Assembly (NCBI GenBank): GCA_043813605.1
Contig: JBDRKX010000102.1
Span: forward strand, 1 to 56,083
Direction of reading: 5' to 3'
Source: Elusimicrobiota bacterium
GTDB lineage: Bacteria; CG03; SLGR01; JBDRKX01
Length of the DNA stretch: 56,083 nucleotides
The translations under genes were made by a program, and so were the position numbers. Under the pieces are notes generated by a model, which searched no databases, had not been told where the DNA came from, and saw only the letters and a list, made by a program, of their open reading frames with translations. Shown here piece after piece: positions 4,380 to 55,809 of this stretch. Numbering within the stretch: the stretch's first letter is position 1; every line of letters begins with the position of its first letter.

Positions 4380-4413
4380 CGCTCTTCTATTCCCCTTTTT
4401 CCTCTTCCGGCAT

Positions 4414-4976: not shown

Positions 4977-5009
4977 AATAGGTCTTATATATATAGTATA
5001 ATACTTTTT

Positions 5010-5053
5010 TGTGAAATATGTGTGAAATATGTGTGAAATATATGTAAAATTAA
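5010..5053 (-). promoter_or_regulatory. Four tandem 11-bp direct repeats (tgtgaaatatg x2, tgtgaaatata, tgtaaaattaa) upstream of small ORF A
   Basis: Exact 11-bp phasing is read directly from the sequence. On the coding strand each unit contains a -35-like TTCACA/TTTACA. The same motif family occurs at 25270-25321, 54229-54250 and 55859-55880. Confidence 0.55.
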
Positions 5054-5059
5054 TTATCA

Positions 5060-24660: not shown

Positions 24661-24704
24661 AAAAAAAACCCGCACTCTGCTCATCTCTAAACAAAGTGCG
24701 GGTT
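24661..24704 (-). terminator. Conserved hairpin + T8, copy B, between small ORF B and giant 2
   Basis: Same 10-bp stem as copy A (AACCCGCACT / AGTGCGGGTT); the loop differs at 2 nt. The TAG stop of small ORF B (24687-24689) lies in the loop. The T8 run ends only 8 nt before the giant 2 ATG (24652). Confidence 0.7.
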
Positions 24705-31500: not shown

Positions 31501-34500
31501 GCAATTCCGGCTACATACTCGCTCCGCACCTGGTCAACAGTCTTGTTTTCAACCTCTATACCGGCTGTTTCTGCTGCTGCGAGGAGTTCTGTTTCTGTAC
31601 CTTCGAACGCTATGCGCATGTCAGTTTCCAGAGCGGCTATGGTCTCACTGAGCGCGGCAACCTTCTGCGGATCATTCTTATCTCTAAAAAGCTCTGATAT
31701 TGTTGCCTGCCAGCTTCCTCTTGAAAGCTCGATCTTATCAGGATCGATCTTATATTCTCTAAGTTCCGCACTTATGTCGTCTATAGACCGGTCTTTTGTA
31801 GCTATCCTGAACTGTTCTGCCATTGCGATCAATTCCTCTTCAGTTCCATTGATCGCGGCTTCGATATCAGAATTTACTCTCAAAGACAGAATAACATTAT
31901 AAACGTCGCTGTTATCCCTGCTGCTTGTCTCCTTGGATTTATTTTGGCTTCCGGGAGAGAATCCCCTGCCGTCTTTCTCCATAGCTATTGTACCGTTATA
32001 TACTTCCGACATAGCCCGGAACGCGTTGCTTATCGGTCCGCCTAACCAGCTTTCCCACATATCGGAATTAGTCTTATATTCTTCCAGTTCCGCTTTTACG
32101 GCTTCTATTGACTGGCCTTCCGTATCTATACTGAACAGTTTTGCCATTGAGATCAATTCCTCTTCAGTCCCGTTAAGCGCTGCTTCAATATCAAAAGTCT
32201 TCCTGAGTATTCTGTCAGCAGCTTTATTCCAGCTGATCTTATGGGTATCCTCATTGCGGAAGAAATGCGGTGTCTCTACATTATCAGCCATATCGGATTC
32301 ATCGAATGTCTGCGTGATATTACTTCCGGTGATCTGTTCATATAAACTTTCCATCTTATCCACAAACACCTTATCCGCAGGTGTAGGTTCACCCGCGATA
32401 TATGTTGATAACGATAATGCCGCAAGATCAGCCTCATCAATAATACGCGTATATTCGGAACCAAGAGCTTTTTCCAGATCATCATTACCTTCATCCGCCG
32501 TCTTTTTGGCAGCTTTATGGACAAGATGCGTCCTGGTATGTATATCGTAAACCATTACGTTGCCGGGTTTATTAATTGCCTCTATCAGGCTCTTGTTATT
32601 ATCGTTCCTGTCTTCCAGTTTTTTCGCGTTTACATACGTCATACCATAGAGGTTGGCGAGCTTTTCTTCAGCTTCCTGAGCGGCCGGGTTCTCTGAACCG
32701 CTCACAAACCTGGTTATTTCACCTTCGGAACTTACATAAACAGCTTTTGCTTTATTGCTGCCCATTATGAGGTTTCTTGCACCTAAGACATGAGTATAAC
32801 CTGTCGTTTTTCCTCCTGATGTCGTAAGCTGTACGATCTTATTGTTCAGGTTTGCCCGGACCATAATCATCTGTTTTGAATGTCTTACCGGATCGAATCC
32901 CCGTACTATAAAGTCTTTATACAACTGCAGTTTTTCAATATACTCACCGGAGAAATCCTTATCAGGGTTGCCTTCTTCTATAGCGCTGAATACAGTATCG
33001 ACATAGTTCTCCATACCTACTTCAGATAGATTAATAACTTTTTCACCTTCTGCTGTCCTTATGACCGTATTGCCGTAGTTATTCACTCCGAACAGGATAT
33101 CAATCCTATCTGCAAAATAAACACTCTCCTTTTCCGTTATAAGCCCTTTAGTCTTAAACGCTGTTATCTCAGCCCTTATAGCGTTACCGAATGCTATACG
33201 CTCTTCGCTTGTTGCCGTTGTGAAATCAGGTACTTTTATTATTTTCCCGCCGCTCGTCACGAACTGGCCGTTTTGAGCCAGCTGCCCGAAAATATTGTCA
33301 ATTTCCTGCCCGAAATTGCTTTCCTTTACAACTGCTGTCTCTTCCTTGATCTCAACACGCCTGAACTCCTCGTATTTATGCTGGCTGTTTACCAGTGCGC
33401 GTTTAGCTTCGACTATCTTTTTCTTTGTATCCGCTACAACTTCGGTCTTTTTACTCTCATTATCTGCATTTAAATAATTTCCTATTGATTCACTCTGGAC
33501 CTGGAGAAGATTCATTTTTGCCGTTTCAACATTTATGATCTCTTCAACAACACCGTCATTTTGCATAGTCTCAATATTGCTCTCCATAACTCTTATTCTG
33601 CTGTCAATAATATTTTTCTGTAAAGTCAATTCTGCTGTTTCCAGGTCCTGAGTCAGTGTTTGTATACTGGTTTTATAAGTAGACGGCATACCCATTCTCG
33701 ACGCTATCATACCCCCGATAATGGGCAGGTAGAAATTATTTTCGCCCATGATCATTCCCAGAGGCACTGAAACAGCAAAGAACTTGGCCAGATGCAGCAG
33801 TCTGGGCTTCGATACACCGGATTCAGCGATATTCAAAGCTCTCAGCATAGCCAGTTCGGATGTCATTTCCTTTATGTTCCTGTCTGCCTCCAACTCGGTT
33901 CTTACATTATTCTTCACTATCGCAACGTCGCCGCCGTTCTCCTCTACTATCTCTTCTAACGGCATTCCCATTCTGGCCTCCAGCGGGACCCGCATAGTCT
34001 CAAGGAATGTCACATCTTTCATGTTATCGAGATTCGCAATATTAGCATCGGCTGCTTCCGTTTCCAGTGCTTTGTTCCTGTTATAAAGCTGATAGGCTAC
34101 CGCTTTATACATATACTGGAGCTCATCCGACCGTTTATTGCCTGTTATAAGTTTTATATCATCTGCCGTTATATCTCCGAATGTTTTCCTGGTCACATCA
34201 GCAGCATTATGTACATCCTGCAGTTTAACGCTTAACTGATCAAGCGCTGCAATATCATCCTGTGTAACTGTTGATACTGCGTCTGTTCCGGACGATTCCT
34301 GGGCTGTCCTTATTTCCACAAGACTGCCGGATATCATGCTGATAAACGCAATGTCTTCGGCTGTTAAATCAGCTGCTGTTACTACGGATTTTCTCAAGTT
34401 CACTATCTTTTCACCAAGCGTATTCGCAGTATCAATATCATCTTGTGTTACTTCATAAGACACTGTATCCAGCCCCAAAGATTCCTGGAGAAGTTTCATT

Positions 34501-37500
34501 CCAATTACAATCTCACCAAGATTACCGGCAACCTCCAGATCTGCATCGGAAAGATTATCTATTGCTGCTGCAACATCTTTCGCTACCTGTTTTTTAACTT
34601 CCCTGGGAAGCTCAGCAAGCGTGAATCCATCGAGAAGCGCTATATCCTGTGCCGCCACAAGGAATTCCCTTGTATTTTCAAGAGTCTCTATCTCTGCTGA
34701 GTAAAGCGAGCGCGTGCTCTCTTCTCCGTTTTTATCTATTACTTTAACCTGCACAGAATCAGGATTTGCTGATAACTGTCCCATAACTGTATCCAGCACA
34801 GCTATTTTATCCTGTATTCCCAGACTATTGAACTCAGCGAATAGTTCCTCATCTATTGTTTTTTCAGTTTTTTCTTCTACTGCCGGCTGTACCGGCGCGA
34901 CTGTTTCCGCTGCCTGGGAATCGGACTGGCTCATGGCGGTAAGTATCGGGTCTATACTGTCTTCAAGATCCTGTACCACGGTATTCACTCCGGCCTTTGC
35001 GTTCTCAAGCGCCTGCGCGTTTGACTGCTCCATTGCAGAGAATTCCGCGTCAATATTCGAATCAAAATCAGCCACCGTCGCCTGCAGCCCTGTCACTGCA
35101 TTCTCAAGCGCCTGCTCGTCGGACTGATCCATTGCCGACAGTACCGAATTCACACCCGCGTCGACATCCTGGACATTCGCCTGTATATTGGTCCTGGCGT
35201 TCTCAAGTGCCTGCTGGTCCGACTGCTCCATGGCAGAGAACGTCGCGTCGATCCCGGTCTCAAAATCCGCTACCGCCGTCTCTATTACCGTTCCGGCATC
35301 TTCCGCTGCCTGGGAATCGGACTGGCTCATGGCGGTAAGTATCGGGTCCATACTGTCTTCAAGATCCTGTACCACGGTATTCACTCCGGCCTTTGCGTTC
35401 TCAAGCGCCTGCGCGTTCGACTGCTCCATGGCAGACAATGTGGGACTTACATTAGAATCAAAGTCCGCCACCGTCGCCTGCAGCCCTGTCACTGCATTCT
35501 CAAGCGTCTGCTCGCCGGACTGATCCATTGCCGACATTATCGAATCAATGCCCGCATCTACATCCTGGACGATTATTTCCATATCAGATCTTGCGTTTTC
35601 AAGCGTCTGCGCATTAGACTGGCTCATGGCAGATATTATCGGATTTATATTAGAATCGAAATCAGCTACTGCTGTCTCAAGATCTGCTGCAAAATCTGTG
35701 TCTTCCATTCCTGAAAGTATCGCATCCATTCCCGACTGCAGATTCTGAGATGTCGTCTGAATATTTTCCGTGAGGTTTTCCAGCGCCTGCGCGTTAGATT
35801 GTTCCATTGCTGAGAAAGTCGCATTAACACCGGCGTCATAATCCTCTACAGTTGCCTGAAAATCAATTAAAGCAGTTTCAAATGTATCCATATCCGACTC
35901 ATCAAATGCCGTAAGTATGGAATCCATACCTGACTGAAGACCCTGTGAAGTTGTCTGGATATTTTCCGTGAGGTCCCCCAGCGCCTGCGCGTTAGATTGT
36001 TCCATTGCTGAGAAAGTCGTATTGATCCCTGAATCAAAATCATCTACTGTCGTTTCAAATCCGGCTATAGCATTATCAATAGCCGAAGTACCACCCGTAT
36101 CAGAAATACTTCCGATCAGCATATCATCTGATGTCACAATATCAGGTGTTGTTATATCATCTGAAACCGTCAATCCCGTATCAACTGTCCTTTGATCAGC
36201 ATCCGGTGTTAATGTGCTGTCAATAGTAACATTGCTGAGTATGTTTCCAGTTAAGCGAATATCTTCAGGCTGCATATTCACCACATTATCCATGGTTGCG
36301 CTGTTTTCTGATAAAGAATTATAGTCCATACCGAAATTAATATTGAATTTTCCGCCGCCGAGTACCTCCTGCATGTTTTCATTTGATATTCCAAACCCGT
36401 ATTCAAGTACTCCTTCCTGAACTGCTTCTTCCCATATCACCCGGTCAACAAGTTCACCGAACTTTGTTGTATGCGATCCCATTCCAAAAGTCTCCCATGC
36501 GGTTTCATATTGATATAATCTTCCTATCCCGGGAGCTCTTGACAGCAGGTAACCTGCCGCAGGGCCGACTAAAAGGCTCGGAATCAACAATACCTTTCCG
36601 AATTCGTAACCCATATCGTATCCGGACTGGTAACCGTCTATCCAGCTTTCAAATGAAAGCTCGCTGTCACCGAACAGTTTGGAGGATCCGAACTGCATGA
36701 TCATATTCGTGCCTGCGACAAGATGCCCTACATTAGAGAATCCTTCAACCGCATTGAAACCGGCGAACGACAGGCTATTTAAACCGCTTAGGGTCCAGTT
36801 GCCTGTCTGAGCCAACTTTGAGCTTCCCGAGAATAAGTTTACACTTCTTCCCCAGGTCCAGCTCTTCAAGCCGCCGGTAGCCTCAAATCCGGCAGCGCTC
36901 TTGACATTTGCCAGAGTCTGGCCGGCAACCTTCTTCACCGCCTCTATTCCTGTCGGTTTAACAGCTTCAGCTGCGCCAACCTTGGCCCCGAACTGTTTGC
37001 CGCCGGCCTTTGTAAAAGCGCTCGGCGCCTTAGCCAGTATCTTAGCACCTGTATATGCCATCAAGCTCTCGTAACTCCATTCTGCAAAACTGCCTGCCGC
37101 AACTGAAAAATCACCCGATAATGCTTCGCCGACAAAATCATAAGTGGAAGCTACCGAATCTACAGCTGCTGAGATCTTCGCAGAAAAATCGCCTTCGGTA
37201 AACGCCATGGCATAGGCGGTCTTTGCTCCGGCAAGAGTAGTCTGAGAAACCAATACAAACTGCGTGGCTTTTGCCAGCAGAGTCTCTCCTCTGACAACCC
37301 AGGAAACATATTTTGCGCCTTTGACACCGTTGAGCGCGGTACTGGTTGCTCCCGCTATTTTGGTTCCGACAACAAACGCTTTCTGACCCCAGCTGAATCC
37401 CTGGATAAAAGTACCTGCTCCTCTCAACGCGCCGCCTATCCAGCTTCCGGCGCCAAAACTGAGCGCTGTTGTTGCGAATAACGTTATATCAAACGCGGCA

Positions 37501-40500
37501 TCAACCCATGTGTACATGTTCTGATGCATGGCAAGGTTAACAGCTGTGTCCCCGAGTGGTACATCGCCGTTCCTTAATCTACTGTCAAAACCCTGTGCCC
37601 ATGAAGAAAAACTGTTTTCCAGAACGCCTATTGCAGCCTGCGCCCTTACAAGCAATTTGAAATTATTGGAATTCCGGCCCGCATCAAAAGCATCCGTGAG
37701 CATTTTTGTAGTTATCTTATCCGAAGCCATGCCGGCATCCACAGAATTCTGGAGATAATCAACCCATTTATCACCCTTTATACGGCTCTTCTGTCCAAAA
37801 CTGGATATCTCCGTCCTTCTAAGATCGGCTCCCTGGAAATAAGCTGCGAGCATCGACCTGTCTGTTTCGCTGAGACGATTCATTACGTCTATCATCTCGT
37901 TATCCGTTGCCCGCCTGGTATCAAGGGTCTGCTTATTTAATCCGTCCGTTGCTATTTCCGTAACGACTTCGCGTTTTACTATCCAGTTAAGAGCCGTTCC
38001 GGACATATCTTTTTCTCCGCTCTTTACTTCTTCAACTTTATATGTTATCTGTTCAAGCGCGCCGAAATCAGATGTTTTTATTGTAAGACTAGCTATCTCA
38101 CCAGGACCACGAAGAACCCTGTTTACATCCATTATCCTGTCGACCTTAAGGTTGTTATCCTTCACACTGAACTCTACATAATTACCCTTCTTATTAAACA
38201 CCCACCCGTCCTGACCGCCTTTAACAGTGGCTCTTATCTTTCCGTTAACATAACTCAACTCCATGTCATCGGTTATCGGACAGTTCTTGTTCAGGTAATT
38301 GCCTTTACTGTCAAGTATCACCTGGCCGAATTTTACGGCACGGTTTGCATCGTCTTTATGCCTGTATATTTTAAAACCGCTGTCACCCATTTTCGCCGTG
38401 GCATCTGCATCCAGCTTAAACGCATCCATGTCAATGGAAACCTTTACGGTTTTTGAATTATACGTAAGACCTTCTTTATTCTTGATCGCGTTGCCCTTGG
38501 CATCATACAGGTAGGTATTCTCAACAGTGAGCATAAGATCGTTCTTGGAATATGTCATCCTTACCATATTGACCTGTCCATCCGATCTGTACTTATACTC
38601 TGTCTGCAGCTCTTTATATTTAACCAAGCCGTCAACCCTGTAATTAGTATCGTTTGTTACCTGCAGTTTAAGTACCTGGCTGGTACTTCCGTCCTTGTTC
38701 GTTACAGTGATAACCTGGGATCTTTCGGAATGTGAATCGGAAGAATTCAGTACTTTCCTGTTCTCGCCGTTCAGGCCTTCAGTAAACACGCTGTATCCCG
38801 AGTTTTTAACGGTATTTTTAACCGCTACAACATTACCGGATTTATCAACAGTATAATCCGCATTGATCTCGACAGCTTTAAGGTTCCCCTTACCGTCATA
38901 AAAGTAGTTTGCGTTCCTGATATCATAGTGCTTGCCGATCCTCTCTCCATTCGAAACGGTCCATTCGTCATATCCTTTATCTTTAGTGCTTATTACTTTC
39001 AGTTCTCCGTTTACGAGTCCAAGAGTTTCTTTATGACTGTCAATGTTCCTCCCTGCTATTTCCTTCTCTGTTCCTGATGTCATATCATAAGTGCGGCTCT
39101 CATATCCGGATCCCTCTATGACAACCCTCAACCCGCCTTTGTAACTGTACTTTGCAGTTCTTGTGTCATAATGCTCCGTTGATTTTATCTGTTGTCCGTC
39201 CATGGTCCTGAAAGCAACAGCATTATAATTTTTATCGTATGTTCCTGTGATTTTGACCTCGCCATCTACAAGCCGCCATGTTTCTTTATGCACTTCTGCG
39301 GTTTTTCTGCCCGCCAGTATCGGATTATCCGGGTTAGTAGCTATATCGTAAGTATCGCTCTGGAATCCCGTGCCGTTGATATTTTTTCCAACCAGATTAC
39401 CTTTATCATCATATTTGAAATCAGTAGTCTTTACAGCGTAATGATCATTTGTCATATTAGCGCCGGACTTATCCTGAGCCCAGGTGTCACAGTTATGTTC
39501 GACCGCTTTAACCAGCTTGAACTGGCCATCCATCATCTGCCAGTTTTCTGCCCGGGACTTGGCGGCACTTCCGTTAATATCCGTAAAATCACCGCCATCG
39601 ACTGCAACACTTGTTTTGGTGTTGTACCCGTCTCCGGTTACAGTCATTATCTTGTTACCTGAAGCGTCAACACCATAGACAGCTTTTCTTTCATCCCAAT
39701 GCTGGGTAGACTTCATCATCATCGCTGCGCCTGTTACGGTGTCTATTTCTGTCTTCTCAGTCACCACGTTGTAATTGGAATCCTTTCTGCTCACCAATGT
39801 GATATTGCCCGCTTTATCCACCGTAAAGGTCTCTATATGTTTATCCGAAGTAGTAAGCGCTTTTATCACATCATCACTTGAACGCGAAATATAATTGTCA
39901 CTGGTTACGGTTATTCCTGTCATTTTTCCGTTAGAATCGTATGCGTAATCAGCGATCCTGCCGGCTGAATCCTCGGTTACTTTGTTTCCCTCTACGAGTC
40001 TCCAGGATTCATAGTTTGTATCTGTTGTCTTGACAAGGTTAAGCTGGCCGCCCCTCATACCCAAGACCTGTTCGTGCATATCAGAATGTTTATACGAAGT
40101 CTGGGTACCTGCAGAATCGAAACCTTTAAGTTCCCAGTTATCCCCGCTGATAACACTTGCAAGAAGATTTCCTTTAGCGTCATAGGTATTATTCACGCTC
40201 CTCGATGAATATGTCTCAAGTGTAGTTGTGCCGGTTTCGGAATTAAGTTTCCAGTTAGAGTAATTATCCATTGTCGTCTCTTGAGATTTATATACGCCAT
40301 TGCTTTGAATTACCTGCCGGTCTTTATAATTATCTCCTTTGACAGTATTAGTGACAGTCCCGTCCAGCGTAACGGTTTTCTCAAAAAGATCCGCTGTAAT
40401 GGTCTTATTTATACCATCCACCGCTTCACTCATGTTCGTGTACCTGTCAACTTCAGTTTGTCTCGTATTGAACTGACTGCTGATATTGGTCGGATCAGCA

Positions 40501-43500
40501 TATGTGCCGTATTCAGTTTCAAATATTGTCACATTCCCTTCGACTCTCTTGGCTTGCACGATCTTATTATCTGTATATGCGCTGCTCGTCACATAGGATC
40601 CTGTCAGGTGTTTCAGGTCGGTAAAAGTCACATTATTACATATCTGCTGGCTGCCGTCCGCATTTATCTGCATAAATGAATTCAATGCAGCATTAGATGA
40701 AGAGTACTTAGCTGTCTGGAACCCTCTTATATATTCATTTGAAATATATTTTTCCCCGTTAAACACCATAAGAGAATCATCTCCGGACTGTCCGGTCGCA
40801 TTAAGGGTTCTCACTCCATGCTCAAGTATCTCCTGGGCTTTCAGTATATGAGGATTATCTTTAGGCATACCTGTTCCCGTTGATTCAGCTTTAACAGGCA
40901 CGCCGTTAGCATCATATTCATAGACAAATCCGACTTCAACTATTGTTTTTACCTGATCGCTGCCGTATGTATATGACTCTACCTGGAAATGCGTCCATAC
41001 ATCATCTTCATTTGCAAAAACAGTATTGATATTGTAGCCTTCTTCAAAATAGTCGAATGTGGATACGCTCTCTCTGCCTGTTATCTGTTTGCCTATAAGA
41101 GTGAATTCTACTCCTCCCCTGTTATAAACAGTATCGCCCTCGGCGGCTGTTACTCTGAATGTGGTACTCTGTACCGCGCGGCCGCCGACATGTTCTTCTA
41201 TCGTTACATACTCATTCTGATTAACGCCAACATTATGAAAGACATAGGTCTCTTTAGTACCGTCTATCACATGAGCTAATGTTGTGGATTGGAGCCATTT
41301 ACCCGGATTTACCGGACCCATAGCGGCGGCATTAATCAGGGCATTCGGATCTTCAAATCCGCCCATTATGGCAAGCGTCTCGGAATCACTTAATGTACGC
41401 TGGCCAAGAGTTGCATTGGCAGAAAGCACCATAAACTTGTCAGCCGAATTGAAACCAGCGACTCCTCCCTGTCCGTTTCCTCCGACGACATAATGACCTA
41501 TCCCGTCTTCACCCGAAAGATATACTATTGCAGAATTACCCGACCCTATATAGTTGTTCAGGTCACTTGAACTCACTTCTGCTGCATGCAGTGTAAGTCC
41601 GTACTGTTTAGCTGTTGTCTGGATAGCAAACATGGATGTCGCCAGGACATCACCGCTCTGTTCAAATACTCCTTCATTCAGTGATCCGGTCATTATATCT
41701 ATGAGAAGAGTCGTGGTAGCCAGACCTGACTTCGTATGGGCTATACCCTGCTGAGTCAGAATATTGCTGAGAGCATCTGCAGCGCAGTTCATGACCTCCT
41801 GTGTTGCGCTGACAAGCTTGATCATATGATTAAGATTCTGCTGCGTAAGGGCTATTATCGGATTTTCGTCCGGGTTAAGTCCTATTTTAATAAGCATTTC
41901 ACGCTGTTCAGCTGCTGTTGCAGTCATATATTTCTGACCCCAGAGCATGACATTTGACAGAGTTTTGGCTCTTGTTGTACTCAGGTCCAATGCCTCTTCA
42001 ACAGTCAATGCACCCGTCTTTACAAGATAAGCCTTTTCCGGATCTACCTGGATATCACCATAATAGAGTCCTGATTCGGTCTTACTGTAAACTCCGTCAG
42101 TACCGTACACAGAACATACTTTGATCTGCCCGTCGCTCGTATAATCGCCGGCAGTATATCTGCCTGACGCAAGATCACCGGTCAGTCCGGTATCCTTTGT
42201 ATAAATATGCCCTATACCTGTTTTCTCATCTCTGAAGATTGAAGTCATATCACCGGAACTGTTATAGCCTTTATCAAGCATACCTTTGACAAGACCGGCC
42301 TGGGCATCCTCTCTATAAGAACCGGTAACAGTCTTATCCAGTATACCGTCATTAACCGCTATTCTGCTGATTACTGCAGTACCGGCACCCTGCTGGCCGG
42401 CGACAACAGTATCATAGTATCCGTCCGCTTTGCCGGTCACACCTTCTGACATTGTAACAGCCCATACATTCACATCGGCATCCGCCTGCGCTTCCTCTAC
42501 GAATAACAGTCCGGAATCAGTATTCAGCAGACTTCCTTTGACCATTTCACCGGTTATCTGCGCGTATGTTCCCGTCAGTTTTTGAACTACAATTCCATCG
42601 GAGCCCACGGCTATTCTATTGATCACCGTAGAACCCCCTACACCGGCGACAACAGAATCGTAGGTACCGGCGGCAAGCCCCTGTATACCGTCTGCTGTTG
42701 TTAATGTCCATGCCAGTTGGTTTATTCCGGCCTGTTTCTCGCTCATGAAAAGCATACCTGCATCAGTATTAACCAGATCCCCTTTTATAAATAATTCTTC
42801 CTTTATATTTGCATAAGTTCCTGAGAGTTTATTATCTAACACAGCTCCACCGGTTACAATGATCCTGTTAACGACCTCAGTACCCAGAACTCCGGCTATA
42901 ATAGTGTCATAATTACCTGCAGATGCAGCGCCGGTTATTCCATTACTCTTAGTCGATGACCATACAAGCTGATCGACACCGACCTGTTTGTCATCAATAA
43001 AGATCATTCCGGAATCAGTATTAAGCAATGTTCCCTTGACCATTCCGGCATGAGCGTCTTCTCTGTACATCCCGGATAGCGCTGACACATACTTGCTGTT
43101 CTCATCAACCGCGATCCTCTGTATGACAGATGTACCGGCAATCTGACTATCATAGCTGCCCGCCTCAGCCAATCCTGTTATACCCTTGTTCCTGTCTACT
43201 GACCAAACCATACCCGCTTCATCATCAATAAAGAGCATTCCGGAATCAATATTGATTACTTTACCCTTCACATAACCGGCTGTTGCATCTTCTCTGTAAA
43301 CGCCGGATCTTTTTGTATCATATACCCCGTCCTCAAGAACAGATACTTTTTCAAATACAGAAGCGCCGCTCTTGCCGACAATATTCCTTATGTAATCGCC
43401 TTGTTCAGCCAGTCCGTCTATCCCTTTATCTTTGCTAACTGACCATACAAGCTGTTCTGTTCCCGACTGTTTTTCATCGACAAACAGCATTCCTGAATCG

Positions 43501-46500
43501 GTATTTATTACGTTTCCTTTTACCTGGCCCGCTGTTGAATCCTCTCTGTAAATACCTGATCTTGTTGTACTGAGAGCCCCGTTATTCATCACAGCGATCT
43601 TCTCAAATACTGACGAGCCGCTCACTCCCACAATAGTCCTTATATATTCTCCTTCTGCTGCTACACTTCCTAACCCGTCTTCCATACTCATGTTATGTAC
43701 CAGCCGGCCGGCTGGTGTCGATTCTTCATCCACAAAGAGCATTCCGGTATCCATATCGGCTATTCTTCCTTTTACCCAATTACCTTCCTCGGCTTGTCTG
43801 TAGAATCCCGCAGTATTCTGTCTGAGTACGCCATTATCATATGTAGATATATAGCTGACATTATTGGTTATCCCTTTTGTATAAGTACCGGAAGCTAATC
43901 CGACAATACTTCCATCTTTGATCTCATATCCAAGAGAATCAGAAGTACTCATAAATACGAATGTTTCCCCGCTATAATCTCCTTTAAGACCGCCGTCCGC
44001 ATCAAACACGGCATTTGTCTCCACATACCTCGTTTTGTCTATTGTTACTATCCTGGAATTCATCCTGGGGTCAGAAACATCATATGTGAGCTGGCCGTCT
44101 TCCGAAACAACTACATTGTCCGTAGTCCTTGTTACGCCTGATGAATCCGTATATGACGCTCTCATATCTGAGATGTCGGCTTTCAGGTCAAAAGCATTTG
44201 ATCCGTCAATATTGCTTGCCGTATATGTTATGCCCTTGCTATCAGTCCAGGAATAACTTCCTTTAGCTATCTGATTGTAAGCACCGGCAAGAGAACTGAC
44301 CGCTGAACCGCCCGCACTCAAGAACACTTCACCCCAGTCCATCTCTTCTTTCAAACCGAAACTTACATTTAAGGCTCCACTAACAGCGCCCGTCAATACG
44401 GAGGTGCAGAAATCCGCTGCTGCCTGTGAATATATGACACTATTGATGTTAACAGTACCATCTGTAACACCGGGACTTGTCGCTCCGAAAGCATCTGCCA
44501 TTGCAGGCTGTATTACTGCAGTCAAGCCGGCGGTTATCCCACCGATTGCTCCGGCTTTAAGAGCCATGCCGAAATCTATACCGTCACCTGATATAGCCTG
44601 CCTTACAAGGCTCATCCCTGTACTGGTAACAAATCCGGCTACTACCGCTCCTAGTATTCCTCCGCCAACCGCATCTGATATTGACGAGGATATCCCACCC
44701 AGCGGGCTGAATCCAGCCAGACTGCAGACTCCCATTGCCGCGCCCAGTATATCGCCGCTCTGTACTGCATTAACTATACTGTATACTTTATAAGCCGCAC
44801 TAACTACATTGTATATTGTACCAAGCGTACCAGTACTGAATGCGCCAGTTACCGGAGCCAGCGCGCTGGTTATAGGAGCTGTCACTGCAGATACCGCAGA
44901 ACTGACAGCTGTTATTGCTGAACCCACCGCTGCTATAGCATATCCAGCTGCGAAAACTACCGCTCCAGCCGCTGCTACAACAGCTCCAGCTGCTATACAG
45001 GCAATGCCTCCAACTATTCCCGCTATACCGCCGGCAGCTAATAATCCAGCCCCGGTAGCCATAAGAGCAGTACCGGCAGCCATTATAGCGCTTCCAGCAG
45101 CCGCTATCGCTGTTCCTACCGATGTTAAAACACTTCCAACGGTAACAGCTGTTGCTGCTGATGCTGCTGCTGTTGCCGCGGCGCCGGCTCCTACTACTGC
45201 AGGAGTAGCCGCGCCCCAGGTAACCACTATTACTACAATTGCTATCACAACAAGGCAAACGATTCCAAGTATGTTACGGGCGCCCATTGTTTCCTGGGCT
45301 TCCTGCTCGGACATATCCTGACCGATAGATTCTTCAGAAAGGACTTTTATATTTGCGCCCGCGCGGTTCTGGAACTCATCTTCGGTCATCGTCTTTTTCT
45401 GACCGTCGGAGTCTGTGTATGATACTATCCCGTTATCTATACCAGTGATCGTGATATAATGGTCCCCGTCAACATGAACGATCAGTGAATTACCCTCGTT
45501 TATGTAGTTCTTCAGATCAGTAAAATTAGTAACATTCGCATGCAGTTCAATACCGTATTTAGTGCTCGCGACTTTCTGTATCGCGAACATAGAAGTCTCC
45601 AACTGGTTACCGCTCGCAAGATCATCCAGAGTGACCGAACCGGTAAGCAGGTCGATGAGAAGAGCATTGGTCGCTATTTCCTGTTTATCACCGGTTATAC
45701 CGAGCTGAGAAAGCAGATTGACAAGGGCTTCTACAGCACAGTTTATAGCGCCTATAGTAGAATTCATAAGATCCATAAGCGCGTTAATGGTCTCAATAGC
45801 GATATTTAATGAGATATCATCAGTATCCAGGCCCAGGGCGGCAAGCATCTCGGTTTTTCTCTCATCACTCGCTCCCATGTATTCAAGCAGCCAGTTGATT
45901 ATCCCCTGTATCACCTCTGCATCAGCAGTCTCCGCTGCCGGCATATCTATGTTCAACGCAGCAGCCATAAGATCCACAAGTTCCTGTCCCGCTATTTCGC
46001 TGTTCTCTGCTACAGCGGATACGAGTTCAGCAAGTTCCTCATCAGCCATTTCCGCTGATGCTGCTACCGCTGATATCAGGGCGCCCATATCCTCAACTGT
46101 CATATTCTGCTCAGCAGCGACCGCTGAAATAAGCTCTGCAAGCTGGGCTGTTTCGAGTTCGAGGCCGGCAAGTACTTCAGCCAGTTCTTCGGTTTCAAGC
46201 CCGAGAGCATTTATAAGATCCGCGAGTTCTTCTGTTTCAAGTCCGAGCCCGTTGATAAGCTCAGATGTTTCTTCACTGTTCAACCCCAGTTCTTCAATTA
46301 CTGCCGCCATTTCATCCGAACTTAATCCCTGGCTCTTGAGGTACTCAGCAAGTTCTTCGCCTTCAAGGCCTTCTTCTTCTATATGTTTAATTATCTCTTC
46401 TTTCTCTTTTTCGGCTTCTTTCACACCCTCAAGTTCTTCCGTGACGGTTTTATCCCCCGGCTCTGAGGTCTGTCCCGTTGTAGTTGTCACTTCTTCAGAA

Positions 46501-49500
46501 GAAATGCCAAGTTGACTCCTGATATCTTCTTTTTCTGATTCTTCAATATCAAGATTGCTTATTATCTCTTCCTTATCTTCTTCCTCAGCATCCATTTTTG
46601 ATAAGACAGAAACGAGCTCATCTTTCTCAAGTTCAAGGTTATCCAGAAGCTCCGCTTTTTCTTCGTTCTCAAGATCAAGACTGCTTACGACCTCGGCAAG
46701 AGATTCATCGTCCATATCAAGCCCGTATACAAGATCAGCCAGCATCCCGCTGTCAAGTTCAAGCCCGTCTATCAGTTTCGCGAGGTCTTCCGATTCGAGC
46801 CCGAGTTTATCGATGAGTTCTATCATATCATCCATGAACATTCCCATGCCTTTTATTATTTCAGCAAGTTCTTTAGCTTCAAGCCCGAGGCCTTTCAGCA
46901 TATCGGAAAGTTCATCACCTTTTAATCCGAGCGCTATAAGCAGCGCTGTAAGTGTTTCTACGTTCAGACCAAGGCTCTTCAGATACTCAATAAGCTCATC
47001 GCCTTTAAGTCCTTTCTTCCTGACATCAGCCATTATTGAATTAACTCTACTATTTACAGCAGCACTGAACGTCCTCTGCTCGTGTACTTCGTAATGAGTG
47101 TCACGGCGCTCAGGTCTTTCCTGAGTTACCTGCTGCTGAGTAGTCTGCCGGGCCGTGGTATCCCCGCCGCCGTCATAACTCTGCTGAGGCGGCCATACAA
47201 GGTTGCCGTCTTTATAATATTTTCCGCTTACAGGTTCAGGGTCTTTTGCATTTCCATTACTGTCATATGTATATTTCATTACAAAATTTTCGAATTTTTC
47301 ACTTGAAATGACTTTACCTTTAGAATCTGTAGTTTTAATAGTACCGTTAAGCTTTTCTGTGTCTACTTTTCCAATTTCATTGTATGTGTAATCTTTACGC
47401 AGATCATACGTTGTTGTCTTGCCGTTCTCTGTAACTGCACCGGAGATTATCACATATGCCGGTTCCTCGGAATCGCCTTCATATCCGAATTCCTGCTTAA
47501 AATTATTATATTCCTGAACTGTTTCTTTACCGTCTTTTGTTTCAATAAATTTCCCATCTATTACTTCAAGAGTTTTCCTGCCCTGTGCGTCATAAGCGTA
47601 TTCTTTCGAGAATCCGTCAAACTCCATCTTAACACCGTCTTCGACTGCTGTGCCATTTCGGGTTTCTTTTAATACATTACCTTCAGCATCACGAACATAT
47701 TCAACTGTATAATCAGTATACTCGCTCTTGGTTGTCTTCCCGTTCTCTGTCTGAGTAAGCTTGCCGTTAAGAGTCTCTTTTATAACATTCCCGTCAGCGT
47801 CCTTGACCGTCTCCTGCTCGAAATCCTCGAATTTCTTGGTCACGCCGTCTTCTATTGCCGTGCCATTCCTTTTTTCTTTTGTAATATTGCCATCTGCGTC
47901 TCTTGTATACTCGACACTGTAACCAGTATATTCCGATACCTTTTCAGTACCGTCAGCGTCTATCTGGGTAAGTTTACCGTTAAGCGTCTCTTTCGTAACA
48001 TTACCGTCGGCGTCCTTCACCGTCTCCTGCTCGAAATCCTCGAATTTCATGGTCACGCCGTATTCGACTGCTATGCCGTTCCTGGTTTCTTTGGTTATAT
48101 TCCCCTCACTGTCATACTCGAACTCAACGGTAAAATCAGTGTATTCTCTTGTACCGTCAGCATCTACCATTGTTCCATTACGGGTTTCTTTTATGACATT
48201 CCCTTCAGAATCATACGCGAATTCCTGCACGAACTCCGTATACTCCATTTCTACGCCGTCTTGTATTATAATCCCGCCGGACACCTGTTTGATGACTCTG
48301 CCTTCCGAATCATACGTATAATCAATTGAATAATCCGTGTATTCCCTGACAACGGTTTTACCGTCTTTGGTCTCTGTTATTTTACCCGACATCACTTCAC
48401 TCGTAACTCTTCCTTCAGAATCGACTACCGCCTGCTTGGCATAATTATCAAACACCATTGTCGTACCGTTTTCTATCGCGGTACCGTTTCTGGTTTCTTT
48501 AATAACATTTCCATCAGCATCGAGTTCGTAATCGACAGTATAATCACTGTACTCAGAGACAGATGTTTCCCCGTCCTGAGTTTGAGTCATTTTGCCGTTC
48601 ATAACTTCTTTTATAACATTCCCGTTGGCATCTTTGACTGTTTCCTGGCTGAAATTCTCAAATACCATGTGCGCGCCCTGTTCAGTTGCCTCGCCGTTTC
48701 TTATCTCTTTGATCACATTCCCGTTGGCATCATAGACTTTTTCAACACTGAAATTATTATATGTCCTTACATCCTGTACTCCGTCTTTTGTAATTGTTAT
48801 CGTACCGTTTCTGGTTTCAGTTTGAACTTTACCGTCAGATGTATAGGTCATATCCATCTTGAAATTGCTGAAAACCTGTGTTTCTGTGGATTCACCTTCT
48901 TCAGTTACTTTAAGGGTTCCGTTCAGGGTCTGCTGACTAACTTTTCCGGCAGAGTCATACTGACAATCAAGTGTATAATCAATGTATTCATTTGTTGTTA
49001 CATTACCGGCATTATCAGTGACTATCATAATACCGTTCTGAACGGATTGTGTTACCCGCATCGGATCGGTACTTGTATCATACGTGTTATCAATAGTAAA
49101 ATTATCATACTCCCGGTATGAAGTGGTTCCGTCATCATTTGTTACTTCTACCTTTCCGTTCTTTACTATAGTGGCTTTATCTTCACCTTCAGTTGTAACG
49201 GTCTCGGTATACCCGTCCATAGCTGTCTCGGTCGGATCTGATGAATCAGTTGATGTTGTTGTATCACCTGTTGTGCCGGTTGTCGGCGGAGTTACAGCGG
49301 TACCTCCGTCATAACCGGAACTACCCATTATTTTTTTCATTTGCGCAACCGATAATTTATTAGTCACAGTTTTATTAGCAAGAATTTTCACTTTTCCGTT
49401 TTTAATAAGCCTCTGCGAACTCATGGTCTTTGTTGTTCCGTCTGAATCTATATATGTAGCGGTATCTCCTATGATATCTGTTATTACTACATAGTGGTCA

Positions 49501-52500
49501 GGCTCTCCATTTTCTCCAGCCACATGTGCTATGACAGAATTACCTTCCTGAATATACTGTTCCAGTTCATAAAAATCGGCTTCACTCCCTTCCAGTGCCA
49601 CACCCTGTTTTTCTGCTGCTTTCTGTATGGCAAACATAGATGTCGAAAACTGCGCGCCACTGGACAATGTCTCTTCGGTTACCGAACCAGTAAGAATATC
49701 AACAAGTATGGAAGTGGTCGCTATCTCTTCTATTGTCTCGGCATCTTCTATACCGAGAAGATTCTTAAGAGCATTAGTTGCGCAGTTTATCACGTTCTTA
49801 GTCTCATTGAAAACTGTTAGCAGCGCATCTATACTGGATTTGGATATCTGTATGGTAATATCGTCAGGATTGAGCCCGAGTTCTGCAAGCATGGCATTTC
49901 TCTCTTCTTCAGTCGCATCCAGATAATCATTGAGCCAGGTAGAAACATCTTGTTTTACTTTATCTTCGGATGTAAGGGTTTCGTCCTGTATTTCCGTCTG
50001 TTCGTCATCAACTTGATCCTGTGATGATAAAGTAACCGTTTCTTCCGCGCCTGTGTCTGCATCAATACTAGATCCAGTAGCGGTATCCTGTGCCTCTTTT
50101 TGTGTTGTATAGGTCCGCGCTGTATATTGTGATGTTATATTACTCTCGGATCCGCCGCCTGTTTCAGTACCGGTAATCGCGGGACCCGCATCCACATCTA
50201 CATCAACGTCTACATCCGCATCCATACCTACAGCAACATCCGCATTAACAGTTGTATCTGCAGTTGTATCTGCAGTTGTATCTGCAGCCACATCAGCCGA
50301 TACCGCATCAGAACTCGACGAGCTTAATCCTAAAGCAGAAGACAGGCTGTTTCCCGTCACAGCGCTGAAGCCCTGCCCGACTACACTATTGTCTGCAAAA
50401 TTACCCAGCATGCCGCTTATTGAAAAACCCTGATCCGACATCGCTGATTGCGCTGCCGCTACTGCCAGACCGACCGCAAGGCCGCCTATGAAACCAAAAG
50501 CAAGGCTTGCGGCAATAGTTGCAATAGTAGTCATATGGGATGTGATAAATCCCATTATTGAAAACCCTGTTTGAGCCGCTTCTGCTGCTTCCGCACAAGC
50601 TTCTGCCGCTTCCGCACAAGCTTCTGCTGCTGCTGCCGCTTCCGCAGACGCTGCATCCGCCGCTTCCGCCGCCGCATTCGCTGCTTCTGCCGCTTCCGCA
50701 CAGGCTTCCGCATCTCCACTGGCTGCTGCTTCCGCGCAGGCTGCCGCCGCCGCCGCACAATCTGCCGCCGCTTCCGCCGCTGCATCCGCTGCATCTGCCG
50801 CATCCGAGGCCGCATCCGCCGCTTCCGCCGAGGCATCCGAGGCTGCTGCATCCGCATCCGCCGCTGCATTGGCATCTGCCGCCGCATCCGCTGCTTCCGC
50901 CGCTACATCCGCCGCTGCATCAGTCCCAATCGCTGCCGCATCCGCTGCCGCCGCATCCGCTGCCGCATCCGCCGCCGCCGCCGTATCCGCCGAGGCATCC
51001 GCCGCTTCCGCTGCCGCATCCGCCGCATCCGCTGCCGCTGCCGACGCATCCGCTGCCGCTGCCGACGCATCCGCCGCATCCGCCGCCGCATCCGCTGCAT
51101 CCGAGGCCGCATCCGCTGCATCCGCCGCATTTCCATTCGCCGCCGCATCCGCTGCCGCAGAAGTCGCATCCGCTGCCGCTGCCGACGCATCCGCTGCATT
51201 CGAGGCCGCATCAGCCGCGTCAGATGATGCATCCGCCGTATCTCCCGCTGCATCACCTGCACCATCTCCGTCCCCGTCTCCGCCCTTGGCGCCCATAATC
51301 GACTGCTGTTCGGCTACTCCCAGTTCACGCGTTACCGCTTCTTCTGCCAGTATGTTAACCGTATCCGCGATATTTAATGAATCTTTATTTGCTGTATATT
51401 CCTTGCCGTCCGCATCTGTATACGTAACTTCCCCGGCATCGTCTATACCAGTAACCACTACATAATGACCTGCACCACTATCCCCCTCTACCCACGCTAT
51501 TACGGAATTACCATCCTTTATATAGTCTTTAAAATCATTCCAGGACGCTTCACTTCCATGGAGATCCAATCCCTGCTTTTCCGCTGCTTTCTGTATGGCA
51601 AACATAGAGGTAGAGAACTGTCCACCGCTTGAAAGAGTCTCTTTTGTCACTGAACCGGTTAAAATATCGACAAGGACGGCTGTCGTTGCTATTTGGGCCT
51701 GCGTATCATCGTCAGAAATTCCCAGAAGATTAGCCAATGCTTTTACAGCGCAGTTTATTACATCACCTGTCTGGGTCAGGAGTTTAATTATGGCGTTTAC
51801 CGATGCCTGAGTAAGATTTACTATCGGTACTTCTTCAGGATCCAATCCGAGGTCCGCGAGCATCTCTTTCTGTCTTTCAGTACCGGCACCAACATACTCT
51901 TCAAGCCAGGCTGCGACATCCTGCACTACAGCATCTTCTGCCTGATGAATATCCTGCTCGTCTGTGGTTGTAACTGTCTCGTCAACTACTGTTTCAACAG
52001 TATACTCGGTTGGCTCTGTAGTCGTTTCCACATATTCCGTATCGGGTGCTGTTTCGGTATCAATATAGCTGTTCGCTGCCGCTATCACCTGCCCTACTTT
52101 TTCTGTATCATTTTGCTCAACGAGATCCGCTGCTGTCTCGACAAATTGACCGGCAGATTTAACATCACCGATCTCTATGAAACGGTTGGCAGTATCAATC
52201 AGATCTTTTGCCGTTTCTGTATTTCCGGATTCCACAAGTCCTTTGGCAGCTGCAGCCAGGTCTCCCGCTTCTTCTGTCTTGCCCTGATCTATAAGTGTAG
52301 TTGCAGTATCCAATAGCTGACCGGCTGTTTTAAGCTGGTCGTTTTCAACCATCCGGCTCACTGCGCTGATAAGGTCTTCCGCTACCGGAGTATTACCTTC
52401 CTTAAGCGATTCATTAACAGCATCGACAAGCTGACCCGCCGCCGCAGGATCTCCTTCTTCCATTAGTTTTTTTGCCGTTTCAACAAGCTGACCGGCTGTC

Positions 52501-53513: not shown

Positions 53514-54158
53514 TTATACCGCCTTTGTGTATAACTTACTTTCTTCTATACTCATAAAAAAAACCCGCATTCCGAATACTTCATTCAAAATGCGGGTTCC
53601 TTTCCCCCGAAAACCTTTTACGCGCGCTATATCAAATTCGTTTACACGGCTTTTCAGATACCTGTCCCATGGCGTCAAAAACTTCAGTATCCAGCTCGTG
53701 TAATACATTATGCCGGCCCGTATACGGCCCGGCATATAACAATCCCTGTCATATGCCTTTTTCCGTATAAGCGTTGTGCCGAAAGTAAAGACTGCAACCA
53801 TAAGAAGAAAAAACAGCTCCCTGTTCGTCATCAGCACTGCACTCAGTACGTAGTAGAGATGCCCGAACAATCCCCTGCCGGCCTTTTTCCTGACAGGTAC
53901 CGATTTGGTATTTGATTTTTCTTCTTCAGAACTTATCTTTACTTCTCTAAAAAATTCTTCAGATTCAGTAAAAATCGTCAGGTACGGAAACAGTATCTTT
54001 GTTTTAAAAAAAGAAACTGTGCATTCTATCATGTCAAATTGTATAGCAGCAACAGTTTCTATTGTTTCGGATATCTGGAAAGTGCTCATAAAAGTACAGA
54101 GACATATTGTAATAATTATGAGATGTGATATTAACTTTATTTTAATTAAATTACGCAT
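53514..54158 (-). CDS. Small three-TM membrane protein, paralogue C
   Basis: 214 aa with N-terminal TM LISHLIIITICLCTFMSTF and central TMs. Conserved motif: MYYTSWILKFLTPWDRYLKSRVNEFD. The TAA stop lies 3 nt before the giant 1 ATG. The ORF reads through hairpin copy C. Confidence 0.75.
   Translation of the reverse strand: MRNLIKIKLISHLIIITICLCTFMSTFQISETIETVAAIQFDMIECTVSFFKTKILFPYLTIFTESEEFFREVKISSEEEKSNTKSVPVRKKAGRGLFGHLYYVLSAVLMTNRELFFLLMVAVFTFGTTLIRKKAYDRDCYMPGRIRAGIMYYTSWILKFLTPWDRYLKSRVNEFDIARVKGFRGKGTRILNEVFGMRVFFMSIEESKLYTKAV
53556..53598 (-). terminator. Conserved hairpin + T8, copy C, 46 nt upstream of the giant 1 ATG and inside small ORF C
   Basis: Minus strand reads AACCCGCAT-(19 nt)-ATGCGGGTT followed by TTTTTT: a 9-bp stem whose closing end differs from the A/B stem on both arms while pairing is kept. 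It is translated as ...TRILNEVFGMRVFFM... in ORF C. Confidence 0.5.
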
Positions 54159-54693: not shown

Positions 54694-55809
54694 CTAAAGT
54701 TCTATACCATAGGTTTTGTAAATATCGAGCAGTTCGTCCATTTCCGGCCTGCGGTTAAAGTAAAAATCCAATTTGCTCATACCGTGTGAATAGAGCTGGA
54801 ATTTCCCTTCAGGTTCGACCCATAGGCCTACCATTTTTCCTTCATGATAGAACCACTCGTTTACGAGTTCTCCTTCATAAGTTGTATATACAGGTTTTCC
54901 GTTATCATACCAGGTTACCTGACCGGTTATCACATCTTCGGAAAATATCAGTTTTGAACCCTGCCATTTGTACAATTTGGTAACAGTGCCGTTCTCGTCG
55001 ATCTCTTTCTGTTGTTTCCCGTCCGTGTAGAGTGTCACGTTACCCTGCTTATCTTTAACCGATTCTATCTGATAATAACCGTTCTCATCTTTCTTGTACG
55101 TATAAGTGGCAAGCAGTTCCCCGTCTTCAGTTACGGTCTGTATCCTGTTGCCTTTCTTATCGAAACTGGTCACATTACCGTATGCATCTGTCCTGGTTAC
55201 CAGTATACCTTTTAAATCGTATCTGTATGTTGCGATCTTGTTCCCCTCATAATCAAGATCATAACCGGCTTTTCCCTGTTCATCATATTTTACTTTTGCC
55301 TGCGTCAGCTCATCTACAACCCACTGTACATTTTTTCCATATTTGTCGTACTCAAAAGTCTTTGTGATATTTAGGTCTTCGTCATATTCCGCTACCGTTT
55401 TACCGCCAAGCCCCTGTTCCATATATCCGACCTTTTCATCATACTCATTTGTCACCTCTATCATATTGGAACCAGCCTGTCTTTTCCATTTCTTGTCAAT
55501 TTGCCCCTGCATATTCCTCTCATGAGATTTTCGACCGTGTATGGAAAAAGCCTTGTTCCCGTCCTTGTCGACACTGACCATAACATCTCCCTTTGATGTA
55601 ACATATGTTTTGTTTCCGTTTTTATCCGTTATAACAAGAGGTCTGAGAGGGTTTGTATCTATTATCTGTTTTGCCGGCTTGAAGAGCTGTCCATCGGGCC
55701 TGAAAACTTTAGTCGGGTAGTATGAATACGGATCTATTCTCGCTATTCCGTCACACGCTAATAGCGATATATAATACAGCGCTAATAATAATGAAAATAT
55801 TCTTTTCAT
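54694..55809 (-). CDS. YD-repeat lipoprotein
   Basis: Signal peptide with lipobox MKRIFSLLLALYYISLLAC|DG. YD-type repeats: EYDEDLNITKTFEYDKYGKNV, KYDEQGKAGYDLDYEGNKIATYRYDLKG, DAYGNVTSFDKKGNRIQ, KDKQGNVTLY. GGAG lies 4 nt upstream of the ATG. Confidence 0.85.
   Translation of the reverse strand: MKRIFSLLLALYYISLLACDGIARIDPYSYYPTKVFRPDGQLFKPAKQIIDTNPLRPLVITDKNGNKTYVTSKGDVMVSVDKDGNKAFSIHGRKSHERNMQGQIDKKWKRQAGSNMIEVTNEYDEKVGYMEQGLGGKTVAEYDEDLNITKTFEYDKYGKNVQWVVDELTQAKVKYDEQGKAGYDLDYEGNKIATYRYDLKGILVTRTDAYGNVTSFDKKGNRIQTVTEDGELLATYTYKKDENGYYQIESVKDKQGNVTLYTDGKQQKEIDENGTVTKLYKWQGSKLIFSEDVITGQVTWYDNGKPVYTTYEGELVNEWFYHEGKMVGLWVEPEGKFQLYSHGMSKLDFYFNRRPEMDELLDIYKTYGIEL

Follow-up and report, generated by a model that had tools for sequence, protein, structure and literature searches.

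The giant proteins of Omnitrophota-like bacteria may act as single chains or as cut parts, and the same question is raised by a contig of an Elusimicrobiota bacterium (JBDRKX010000102.1, assembly GCA_043813605.1). The whole stretch of this contig that was analysed, 56,083 nucleotides long, is referred to here as the window. The minus strand dominates the window and carries giant 1 (25539..53510), an open reading frame (ORF) of 9,323 amino acids (aa), and then giant 2 (5060..24652), of 6,530 aa. An original prediction, made from the letters of the DNA alone, had claimed that giant 1 contains four C39-like peptidase modules, each ending in a double-glycine-type leader motif, at which the protein would cut itself. 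The analysis leads us to favour, with reasonable but far from full confidence, a reading of giant 1 as a membrane-anchored polyprotein with four self-processing cassettes that cleave in cis. Giant 1 probably cuts itself at four predictable points, yielding five pieces, and the fusion of the putative site to its protease makes the question directly testable.

Four C39 peptidase modules in giant 1

The N-terminus of giant 1 contains a hydrophobic segment at aa ~20-42, and the first C39 module begins at aa 520. The features of the ORF are given below, with the tail residues numbered backwards from the predicted cut (-1 being the last residue before it) and the tail scores obtained with the matrix described in the following section.

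25539..53510, minus strand: giant 1 ORF, candidate polyprotein, 9,323 aa, translation without internal stop
51288..51953, minus strand: C39 cassette 1, aa 520-741; Pfam Peptidase_C39_2 6.6e-10; tail score 13.8; Cys587 at 51750-51752, His682 at 51465-51467, tail LGVAEQQSIMGA at 51288-51323; predicted cut after Ala741, then KGGDGDGD (D/A-rich tract)
49320..49979, minus strand: C39 cassette 2, aa 1178-1397; Pfam Peptidase_C39 3.8e-6; tail score 27.0, the highest in giant 1; Cys1243 at 49782-49784, His1339 at 49494-49496, tail LSVAQMKKIMGS at 49320-49355; predicted cut after Ser1397, YD-like repeat block next
45279..45929, minus strand: C39 cassette 3, aa 2528-2744; Pfam Peptidase_C39 1.2e-5; tail score 20.8; Cys2591 at 45738-45740, His2684 at 45459-45461, tail MSEQEAQETMGA at 45279-45314; predicted cut after Ala2744, strong transmembrane helix RNILGIVCLVVIAIVVIVVTW directly downstream
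41358..41984, minus strand: C39 cassette 4, divergent copy, aa 3843-4051; Pfam 0.014 (below cut-off); module profile 304.9 bits; tail score 15.1; Cys3909 at 41784-41786, His4006 at 41493-41495, tail LSDSETLAIMGG at 41358-41393; predicted cut after Gly4051, Asp-bearing hairpin absent
Minus strand, from the predicted cuts: predicted fragments of giant 1, aa 1-741, 742-1397, 1398-2744, 2745-4051 and 4052-9323

The Cys motifs quoted in the original prediction (INCAVKALANLLG at aa 585-597, INCATNALKNLLG at aa 1241-1253, INCAVEALVNLLS at aa 2589-2601 and MNCAADALSNILT at aa 3907-3919), the motif TSMFAIQ, which is present four times in the giant 1 translation, and the tails were all recovered at their nucleotide coordinates when the translation was checked, within a single minus-strand ORF. 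When a four-module profile was run against the six-frame translation of the window, exactly four copies were found, all in giant 1 (aa 520-747, 1178-1403, 2528-2749 and 3843-4057), with scores of 305-372 bits each; no copy was found in giant 2. The modules are each about 220 aa long and the copies have identities of 40-52% to module 1, with the Cys, the His and the Gly at -2 invariant in all four.

Membership of the C39 family was assessed using the curated cut-offs of Pfam, which are 24 bits for Peptidase_C39_2 (PF13529) and 22 bits for Peptidase_C39 (PF03412). Module 1 matched PF13529 with 40.2 bits (6.6e-10), and modules 2 and 3 matched PF03412 with 27.2 and 25.5 bits (3.8e-6 and 1.2e-5), all above the cut-off. 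The first half of giant 1 (aa 1-4700) gave a C39 Pfam score of 69.8 bits, and PF03412 was matched in 29 of 30 aligned family members, each of which was scanned individually. The best sequence match of the module profile in the PDB was the peptidase domain of ComA, a weak match (E = 0.1) in which the His of the HY..V motif and the Asp that follows were aligned.

The structure of module 1 together with its tail was modelled with AlphaFold2 (AF2) from a 30-sequence alignment, giving a predicted local distance difference test score (pLDDT) of 92.3 and a predicted template modelling score (pTM) of 0.90. The Cys (residue 68 of the model) starts a helix spanning residues 68-77, and the His (residue 163) lies within a strand spanning residues 162-170. 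When this model was compared with the PDB using Foldseek, the top match was the C39 toxin StbD (8ssm) with an E-value of 1.4e-4 and a template modelling score of 0.59 normalised to the target; the further best matches were the papain-like toxin 9l5u, AvrPphB, the PCAT1 peptidase domain (7n87) and LahT150 with its leader (6mpz). The proposed similarity to C39 peptidases was thereby confirmed by Pfam for modules 1-3, by the ComA domain in the PDB sequence search and by the C39 structures found with Foldseek, and the four modules of giant 1 are real C39 peptidases.

The Tox-PL-C39 and C39-like domains of polymorphic toxins have been described as toxin domains and not as releasing peptidases (Zhang et al. 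2012). An assignment of the modules to polymorphic toxins was rejected, as they are internal and repeated and the Pfam scans gave no significant match to a known toxin domain. A search of a viral structure library returned only generic papain- or NlpC-like domains of phage tail proteins and was uninformative, and NCBIfam returned only sub-threshold matches, to a peptidase-ABC transporter model.

The leader-like tail and its coupling to the module

To collect relatives of the modules, 1.84 billion representative proteins were searched exhaustively with the profile, giving 386 proteins at a cut-off of E<=1e-3. The family counts for the tail, the catalytic columns and their coupling refer to the best 150 of these 386, in which 187 module instances were located; 181 of these were aligned (used for the catalytic columns) and 171 were untruncated (used for the tail counts). 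Named relatives carry the annotation 'cysteine peptidase family C39 domain-containing protein' or are listed as hypothetical, and they come from Omnitrophota, Elusimicrobiota, Endomicrobiales and unclassified metagenome-assembled genomes (MAGs). Many of the 386 are giants, up to 7,803 aa in length. A word-indexed protein search using the four-module alignment as query gave no matches, a scan of metagenome contigs for module relatives gave no confirmed relative, and a scan of reference genome contigs gave a single related locus, L001, on contig JAIVZN010000015.1 from a MAG labelled Deltaproteobacteria.

The consensus obtained from 83 well-aligned homologue tails was L-[ST]-x-x-[EQ]-x-x-x-[IT]-[KR]-G-[AGS]. 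A scoring matrix of 13 columns was derived from 82 homologue tails, excluding the window sequence, and the threshold for a strong tail was set at 6.8, corresponding to the 99th percentile of the best score per random 95-aa window of the 150 related proteins. A strong tail, with the pattern L-[ST]-x-x-[EQ]-x-x-x-[IT]-[KRM]-G-[AGS], was present in 140 of the 171 untruncated modules, mostly located 58-75 residues C-terminal to the catalytic His. When the 9,311 positions of giant 1 were scored with this homologue-only matrix its four sites took ranks 1-4 (27.0, 20.8, 15.1 and 13.8), and giant 2 contained no tail-like site, with nothing above 4.1. The tails of giant 1 are far beyond chance. An MG[GAS]-type tail was also expected in orthologues, and was found both in these best relatives and in the syntenic orthologue L001, which has the same N-terminal anchor and one module, followed by LSKEEMQEIKGA, then GRG beyond the predicted cut, and then a Gly-rich tract. 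The agreement with the double-glycine leader consensus likewise held, as the tails match the consensus published for ComA/LahT leaders, L-12 x3 E-8 L-7 before GG, GA or GS, and their binding mode (PMC6363468).

The homology of the family stops at -1. The ends of the profile matches peak at this residue, with 40 of the 187 at position 225 of the hidden Markov model and 37 more at positions 226-228, and the sequence downstream varies between acidic tracts, transmembrane helices and GWW motifs; positions +1 to +6 of the relatives are often FFxxLF or GWWxxFW. No homologues ending exactly at -1, which would represent natural 'pre-cut' genes, were found among the relatives, and the short ones look like contig-end fragments.

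A site of this kind could also be cut in trans, by a neighbouring module, by another copy of the giant, or by a separate PCAT-type ABC exporter reading the tail as an export signal. The canonical C39 peptidases do act in trans on separate leader peptides (PMC6363468), at least two modules are present in 33 of the best 150 proteins, and the tails of the inactive modules described below could be cut only in trans. This explanation is nevertheless considered improbable. Tail-like sites with scores >=12 away from modules numbered 7 in 377,751 residues, compared with 5.0 expected from shuffled sequence, unlike the expectation for a trans-acting processing protease. With no excess of off-module sites over shuffled sequence, the motif is essentially confined to the C-terminal end of a module, which fits one protease per site and not a general protease cutting many sites. 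The spacing between the His and the site is tightly constrained across the family, and is 58-60 aa in modules 1-3 and 45 aa in module 4 of giant 1. Neither ABC_tran nor ABC_membrane was found by Pfam in either giant or in the small neighbouring proteins, and no Walker A motif lies near the modules; the absence of ABC domains indicates that the modules of giant 1 are not PCAT transporters. In addition, StbD-CT processes itself in cis (bioRxiv 10.64898/2026.05.07.723447). Two orphan double-glycine-like sites of giant 1 were tried as trans-cleavage sites:

~36354..36392, minus strand: aa 5707-5719, GISNENMQEVLGG followed by GKFNI, score 10.4
~31098..31136, minus strand: aa 7459-7471, LLAKEEAGTLTGT followed by EEIKL, score 10.1

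Both sites (cuts after aa 5719 and aa 7471) were rejected as being at chance level, with 16 sites of scores >=10 observed and 8.4 expected in shuffles.

The AF2 model of module 1 gave a mean pLDDT of ~96-97 over residues 201-220, with a helix at residues 213-218 (-10 to -5) and a beta-bridge at -3, and the pLDDT was <50 from +3. An independent AF2 model of module 4, with a pLDDT of 84.3, contained a tail helix at -10 to -5 and a bridge at -3/-2, and the pLDDT was <50 from +2. The helix and the bridge have pLDDT values >85 in both models, in which the tail packs confidently on the peptidase domain. The crystal structure of the LahT150-leader complex has a two-turn helix from -4 to -11, with residues -4, -7 and -12 in a hydrophobic groove and residues -1 to -3 linear (PMC6363468); as the layout is the same, the modelled tail resembles a bound leader.

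The models could also describe a tail that is never cut and serves as a structural or autoinhibitory element, a pseudo-substrate helix capping the active site. In that case the substrates of the four modules would lie elsewhere, for example in prey proteins, envelope proteins or other giants, perhaps once the tail is displaced, and giant 1 would stay intact. The placement of the tail by AF2 as an integral, high-confidence part of the fold would suit such a role, some C39 modules of the family do without a tail, and cleavage of other substrates by C39 domains has also been raised by West-Roberts et al. (bioRxiv 10.1101/2023.11.21.568195). An uncleaved tail is considered unlikely, as the conserved positions (G at -2, A, S or G at -1, L at -12, E at -8 and I at -4) are those that define cleavable GG leaders, and because the homology ends at -1 and gives way to variable sequence.

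A transpeptidase has been considered as well. By analogy to sortase and ubiquitin-like systems, an acyl-enzyme formed at G-[GAS] might pass the upstream fragment to an amine of an envelope component, a lipid or a protein; the C-terminus ...I-[KR]-G-[GAS] resembles the LRGG end of ubiquitin-like proteins, and transfer reactions are within the reach of papain-fold enzymes. Neither an acceptor motif nor a partner emerged and the closest solved relatives are hydrolases, making this a very remote prospect.

Catalytic residues and the proposed self-processing

Of the 181 aligned modules, 88 have Cys and 74 have Ser in the nucleophile column and 166 retain the His; in the acid column 110 have Asp and 49 have Glu. 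The catalytic residues are therefore conserved in homologues, with the qualification that the nucleophile is either Cys or Ser. The alternation of Cys and Ser, while the His-acid pair is otherwise fixed, makes the nucleophile position look active. The modules with Ser at this position, 74 of the 187, have HFGDSAF in place of VINCAV, and none is in the window. A strong tail follows all 67 of the 67 untruncated Ser-His modules and 52 of the 78 Cys-His modules, and the Ser-His tails often precede GWWxxFWKG or a transmembrane-like FFPLLF segment. Of the Cys...His...D layout claimed for giant 1, the Cys and His are invariant in the four modules, and the Asp hairpin is missing in module 4.

The first modules of the relatives P0001, P0005-P0008, P0010, P0011 and P0021 have mostly V or G at the nucleophile position (S in P0005), and their His is replaced by L, M, V or S. 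Since the nucleophile and the His are lost together this is the pattern of a pseudoenzyme, and judged by their residues these N-terminal modules are pseudo-proteases. Their tail, E-[LI]-D-x-E-T-K-K-N-T-K-G-T, has Thr at -1 and is followed by a conserved FFAKLF, and an active Cys-His-Asp module is always located 30-80 residues downstream. The conservation of both the tail and the segment after it would be in keeping with an uncleaved tail; against that interpretation, the residue at -1 is Thr and the active module that lies so close downstream would be able to cut. The tail of the dead modules may be structural, or may be cut by the downstream active module.

In the cis self-cleavage that we favour, each cassette consists of a three-helix extension of ~65 residues, a papain-fold core of the C39 family, a short linker and a leader-peptide-like tail. 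The core presents a Cys at the start of a helix, a His on a beta-strand and usually an Asp on the next hairpin, and the tail presents L at -12, S at -11, E or Q at -8, I or T at -4, G at -2 and G, A or S at -1. The tail would fold back on its own peptidase, as a bacteriocin leader does on a PCAT peptidase domain, placing a two-turn helix in the hydrophobic groove and the extended G-[GAS] in the active site, and the bond after -1 would be cut once, intramolecularly. The upstream fragment would keep the protease at its C-terminal end, and the segment beyond the cut would be freed with a new N-terminus. Cutting in this way after aa 741, 1397, 2744 and 4051 would yield five products: the anchor with helical repeats; the D/A-rich tract with a hydrophobic segment; the YD-like block with helical repeats; the multi-transmembrane block with ~90-aa repeats; and the 5,272-aa remainder.

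Because each cassette precedes its cargo, cutting could be co-translational. Just past predicted cut 3 lies the strongest transmembrane helix of giant 1, where hydropathy peaks at 3.25 (aa 2747-2765), and this position, together with the FFxxLF and GWWxxFW segments of the relatives, suggests that the cuts often create the N-terminus of a hydrophobic segment. We infer that cleavage takes place, that it occurs in cis rather than in trans with a single turnover, and that it is possibly co-translational. Cis self-cleavage appears well supported by the sequence comparisons and the models, but is unproven. Similarity to C39 peptidases, conservation of the Cys and His, and presence of the tail in orthologues had been chosen beforehand as the computational points on which the hypothesis could fall, and it survived all of them.

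Several observations weigh against self-cleavage. Module 4 alone scores 15.6 bits (E 0.014) against the PF03412 cut-off of 22 and so falls below the Pfam cut-off; it is without the beta-hairpin that bears the Asp in modules 1-3, and the loop at residues 171-174 of its model has low confidence. A Gln upstream of the Cys has been proposed as the oxyanion residue of C39 peptidases; module 1 and many relatives carry it seven residues before the Cys, and modules 2-4 have E, S and T at this position rather than Gln, with a Gln five residues before the Cys in module 4; the oxyanion role of this Gln has itself been questioned for LahT150 (PMC6363468). A strong tail is absent from 26 of the 78 Cys-His modules, including a clearly tail-less subgroup, and the retention of the tail by the dead modules implies that the tail has a value independent of the catalysis of its own module. 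The confidence of the modelled tail is evidence of packing only, and not of a scissile bond placed at the Cys. Finally, some Cys modules may sit in an oxidising compartment.

The cutting of giants by C39 domains is an idea already in print (West-Roberts et al. 2023). In that study C39 domains were described close to the N-terminal signal of giant Omnitrophota proteins, with the proposal that they might cleave the giants into smaller polypeptides; it stated that the cleavage points were not known, which blocked further analysis (bioRxiv 10.1101/2023.11.21.568195). A 2026 preprint described a PF03412 architecture cluster among long Omnitrophota proteins (bioRxiv 10.64898/2026.06.07.730766). Giant 1 has features of the Omnitrophota giants ('Archaeovorin' class), namely a giant ORF of at least 7,000 aa, an N-terminal anchor and a C39 domain nearby. 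It differs in that the SecA DEAD, preprotein-binding, glycosyl-transferase, hydrolase and methyltransferase domains of this class were not matched by Pfam in giant 1 (E<=0.01), which leaves room for remote homology. The fused site is the new part: compared with the 2023 study, a conserved site is described here for each module, together with the statistics of the site, the alternation of Cys and Ser and the variant seen in dead modules. A search of the accessible literature found no description of a fused leader-like site, of its family-wide conservation, of the Cys/Ser alternation or of the pseudo-protease variant.

When the cassettes were compared with the PCAT/AMS exporters (ComA, LahT and PCAT1), the Pfam family, the papain-like fold and the Cys-His-Asp arrangement were found to be shared, as were the substrate signature (L-12, E-8, hydrophobic residues at -7/-4, and GG/GA/GS) and the predicted shape of the bound site, a two-turn helix with extended P3-P1. 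The cassette differs in that protease and site form a single chain in which the site follows the protease, and in its additional three-helix N-terminal extension of ~65 aa. Further differences are its four repeats inside giant 1, the Ser nucleophile in nearly half of the cassette family and the strong preference for K, R or M at -3.

Experiments on the best structural match to the module model, StbD-CT from a CdiA-like effector of Citrobacter (8ssm/8ssk), have demonstrated that it cuts itself in cis after Gly-Gly and needs its catalytic Cys to do so (bioRxiv 10.64898/2026.05.07.723447). Its site is in a linker N-terminal to the peptidase, so that the cut releases the peptidase as a toxin; it is present as a single copy and, in contrast to the proposed cassettes, also cleaves GyrB and ParE in trans. 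The papain-like leader proteases of plus-strand RNA viruses provide another comparison. Potyvirus HC-Pro and closterovirus L-Pro each make one cis cut at a single G/G or G/[ANS] site, which for HC-Pro is its own C-terminus, and the C-terminus of the HC-Pro product stays locked in the cleft (PMC6357015). The single cis cut is a likeness to the proposed cassettes, as are the tandem copies of closteroviruses, while the viral proteases have no detectable sequence relationship to the modules, a minimal papain fold, and sites without a long leader-type helix motif. MARTX and the large clostridial toxins likewise carry an internal cysteine protease domain (C80), which divides a very large bacterial protein into functional modules. 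Its fold is caspase-like (clan CD), its activator is inositol hexakisphosphate and it cuts after Leu, and one such protease serves several sites, compared with one protease per site in giant 1. A Peptidase_C80 (MARTX-type) assignment was rejected for the modules, which gave no Pfam match to it and have a papain-like fold instead.

For the family as a whole, we hold the chances to be about even that the C39 core with its own tail is a widespread and undescribed bacterial cis leader-protease cassette with a Cys or Ser nucleophile. With such a cassette, the giant ORFs found in Omnitrophota, Elusimicrobiota and related bacteria would encode true polyproteins, cut once per cassette as in the polyproteins of RNA viruses, and the cuts would often free the N-terminus of a transmembrane or hydrophobic segment. 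If true, the tail motif would be a first sequence-readable cleavage map for these giants, and the double-glycine peptidases would be extended from trans-acting exporter domains to single-turnover cis cassettes. The conserved site predicts exact neo-termini to be sought in metaproteomes, assay constructs of ~240 aa and natural split points for structure prediction. The natural Cys/Ser nucleophile series would be of interest to enzymologists and for the engineering of self-cleaving tags.

The remainder of giant 1 and the neighbouring genes

A SecA-like motor had been proposed for the 5,272-aa remainder of giant 1 (25542..41357, minus strand, aa 4052-9323). This proposal was not sustained: no Pfam match at E<=0.01 to such a motor and no PDB sequence match for the last 5,000 aa were obtained, and giant 1 has no Walker A motif beyond aa 2025, although remote homology is not excluded by these scans. 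The sole Pfam match above cut-off in the C-terminal half was RNA_pol_A_CTD, at about aa 8994-9050, and apolipoprotein-like helical repeats scored 58 bits against a cut-off of 90. Giant 2 contains two cyclic-nucleotide-binding domains (2.8e-25); its metallo-beta-lactamase match is weak (25.9 bits, cut-off 27), as is a LysM match in its C-terminal half. The other genes of the window are the following.

53514..54158, minus strand: small paralogous membrane protein, 214 aa, with the shared C-terminal motif
24687..25241, minus strand: small paralogous membrane protein, 184 aa, with the same motif
4440..5060, minus strand: small paralogous membrane protein, 206 aa, with the same motif
3..4433, minus strand: third large gene, start near 4380, at least 1,458 aa, with a hydrophobic segment at the N-terminus; continues past the left end of the window and is thus missing from the ORF list
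54694..55809, minus strand: 371-aa protein, lipoprotein-like, with YD-like repeats, upstream of the operon

Giant 1, giant 2 and the third large gene each have one of the small membrane proteins directly upstream, and these proteins may be dedicated partners of the giants. Their motif is YY.RWR.KF.TP.D.C...LADKYD.NPILMYG.AS...INPHFV, which is clearest between the 184-aa and 206-aa copies, and none of the three had a Pfam match. The long plus-strand ORFs at 874..2226 are probably antisense shadows of the third large gene. A short homologue of the 371-aa protein, MKRIVTLLLMVCC...VDPYSFYPSKRYKPKGEIF, was found in L001 at about 9020..9340 of JAIVZN010000015.1, just upstream of the giant gene, and the L001 locus is considered syntenic because this homologue adjoins the giant gene there too.

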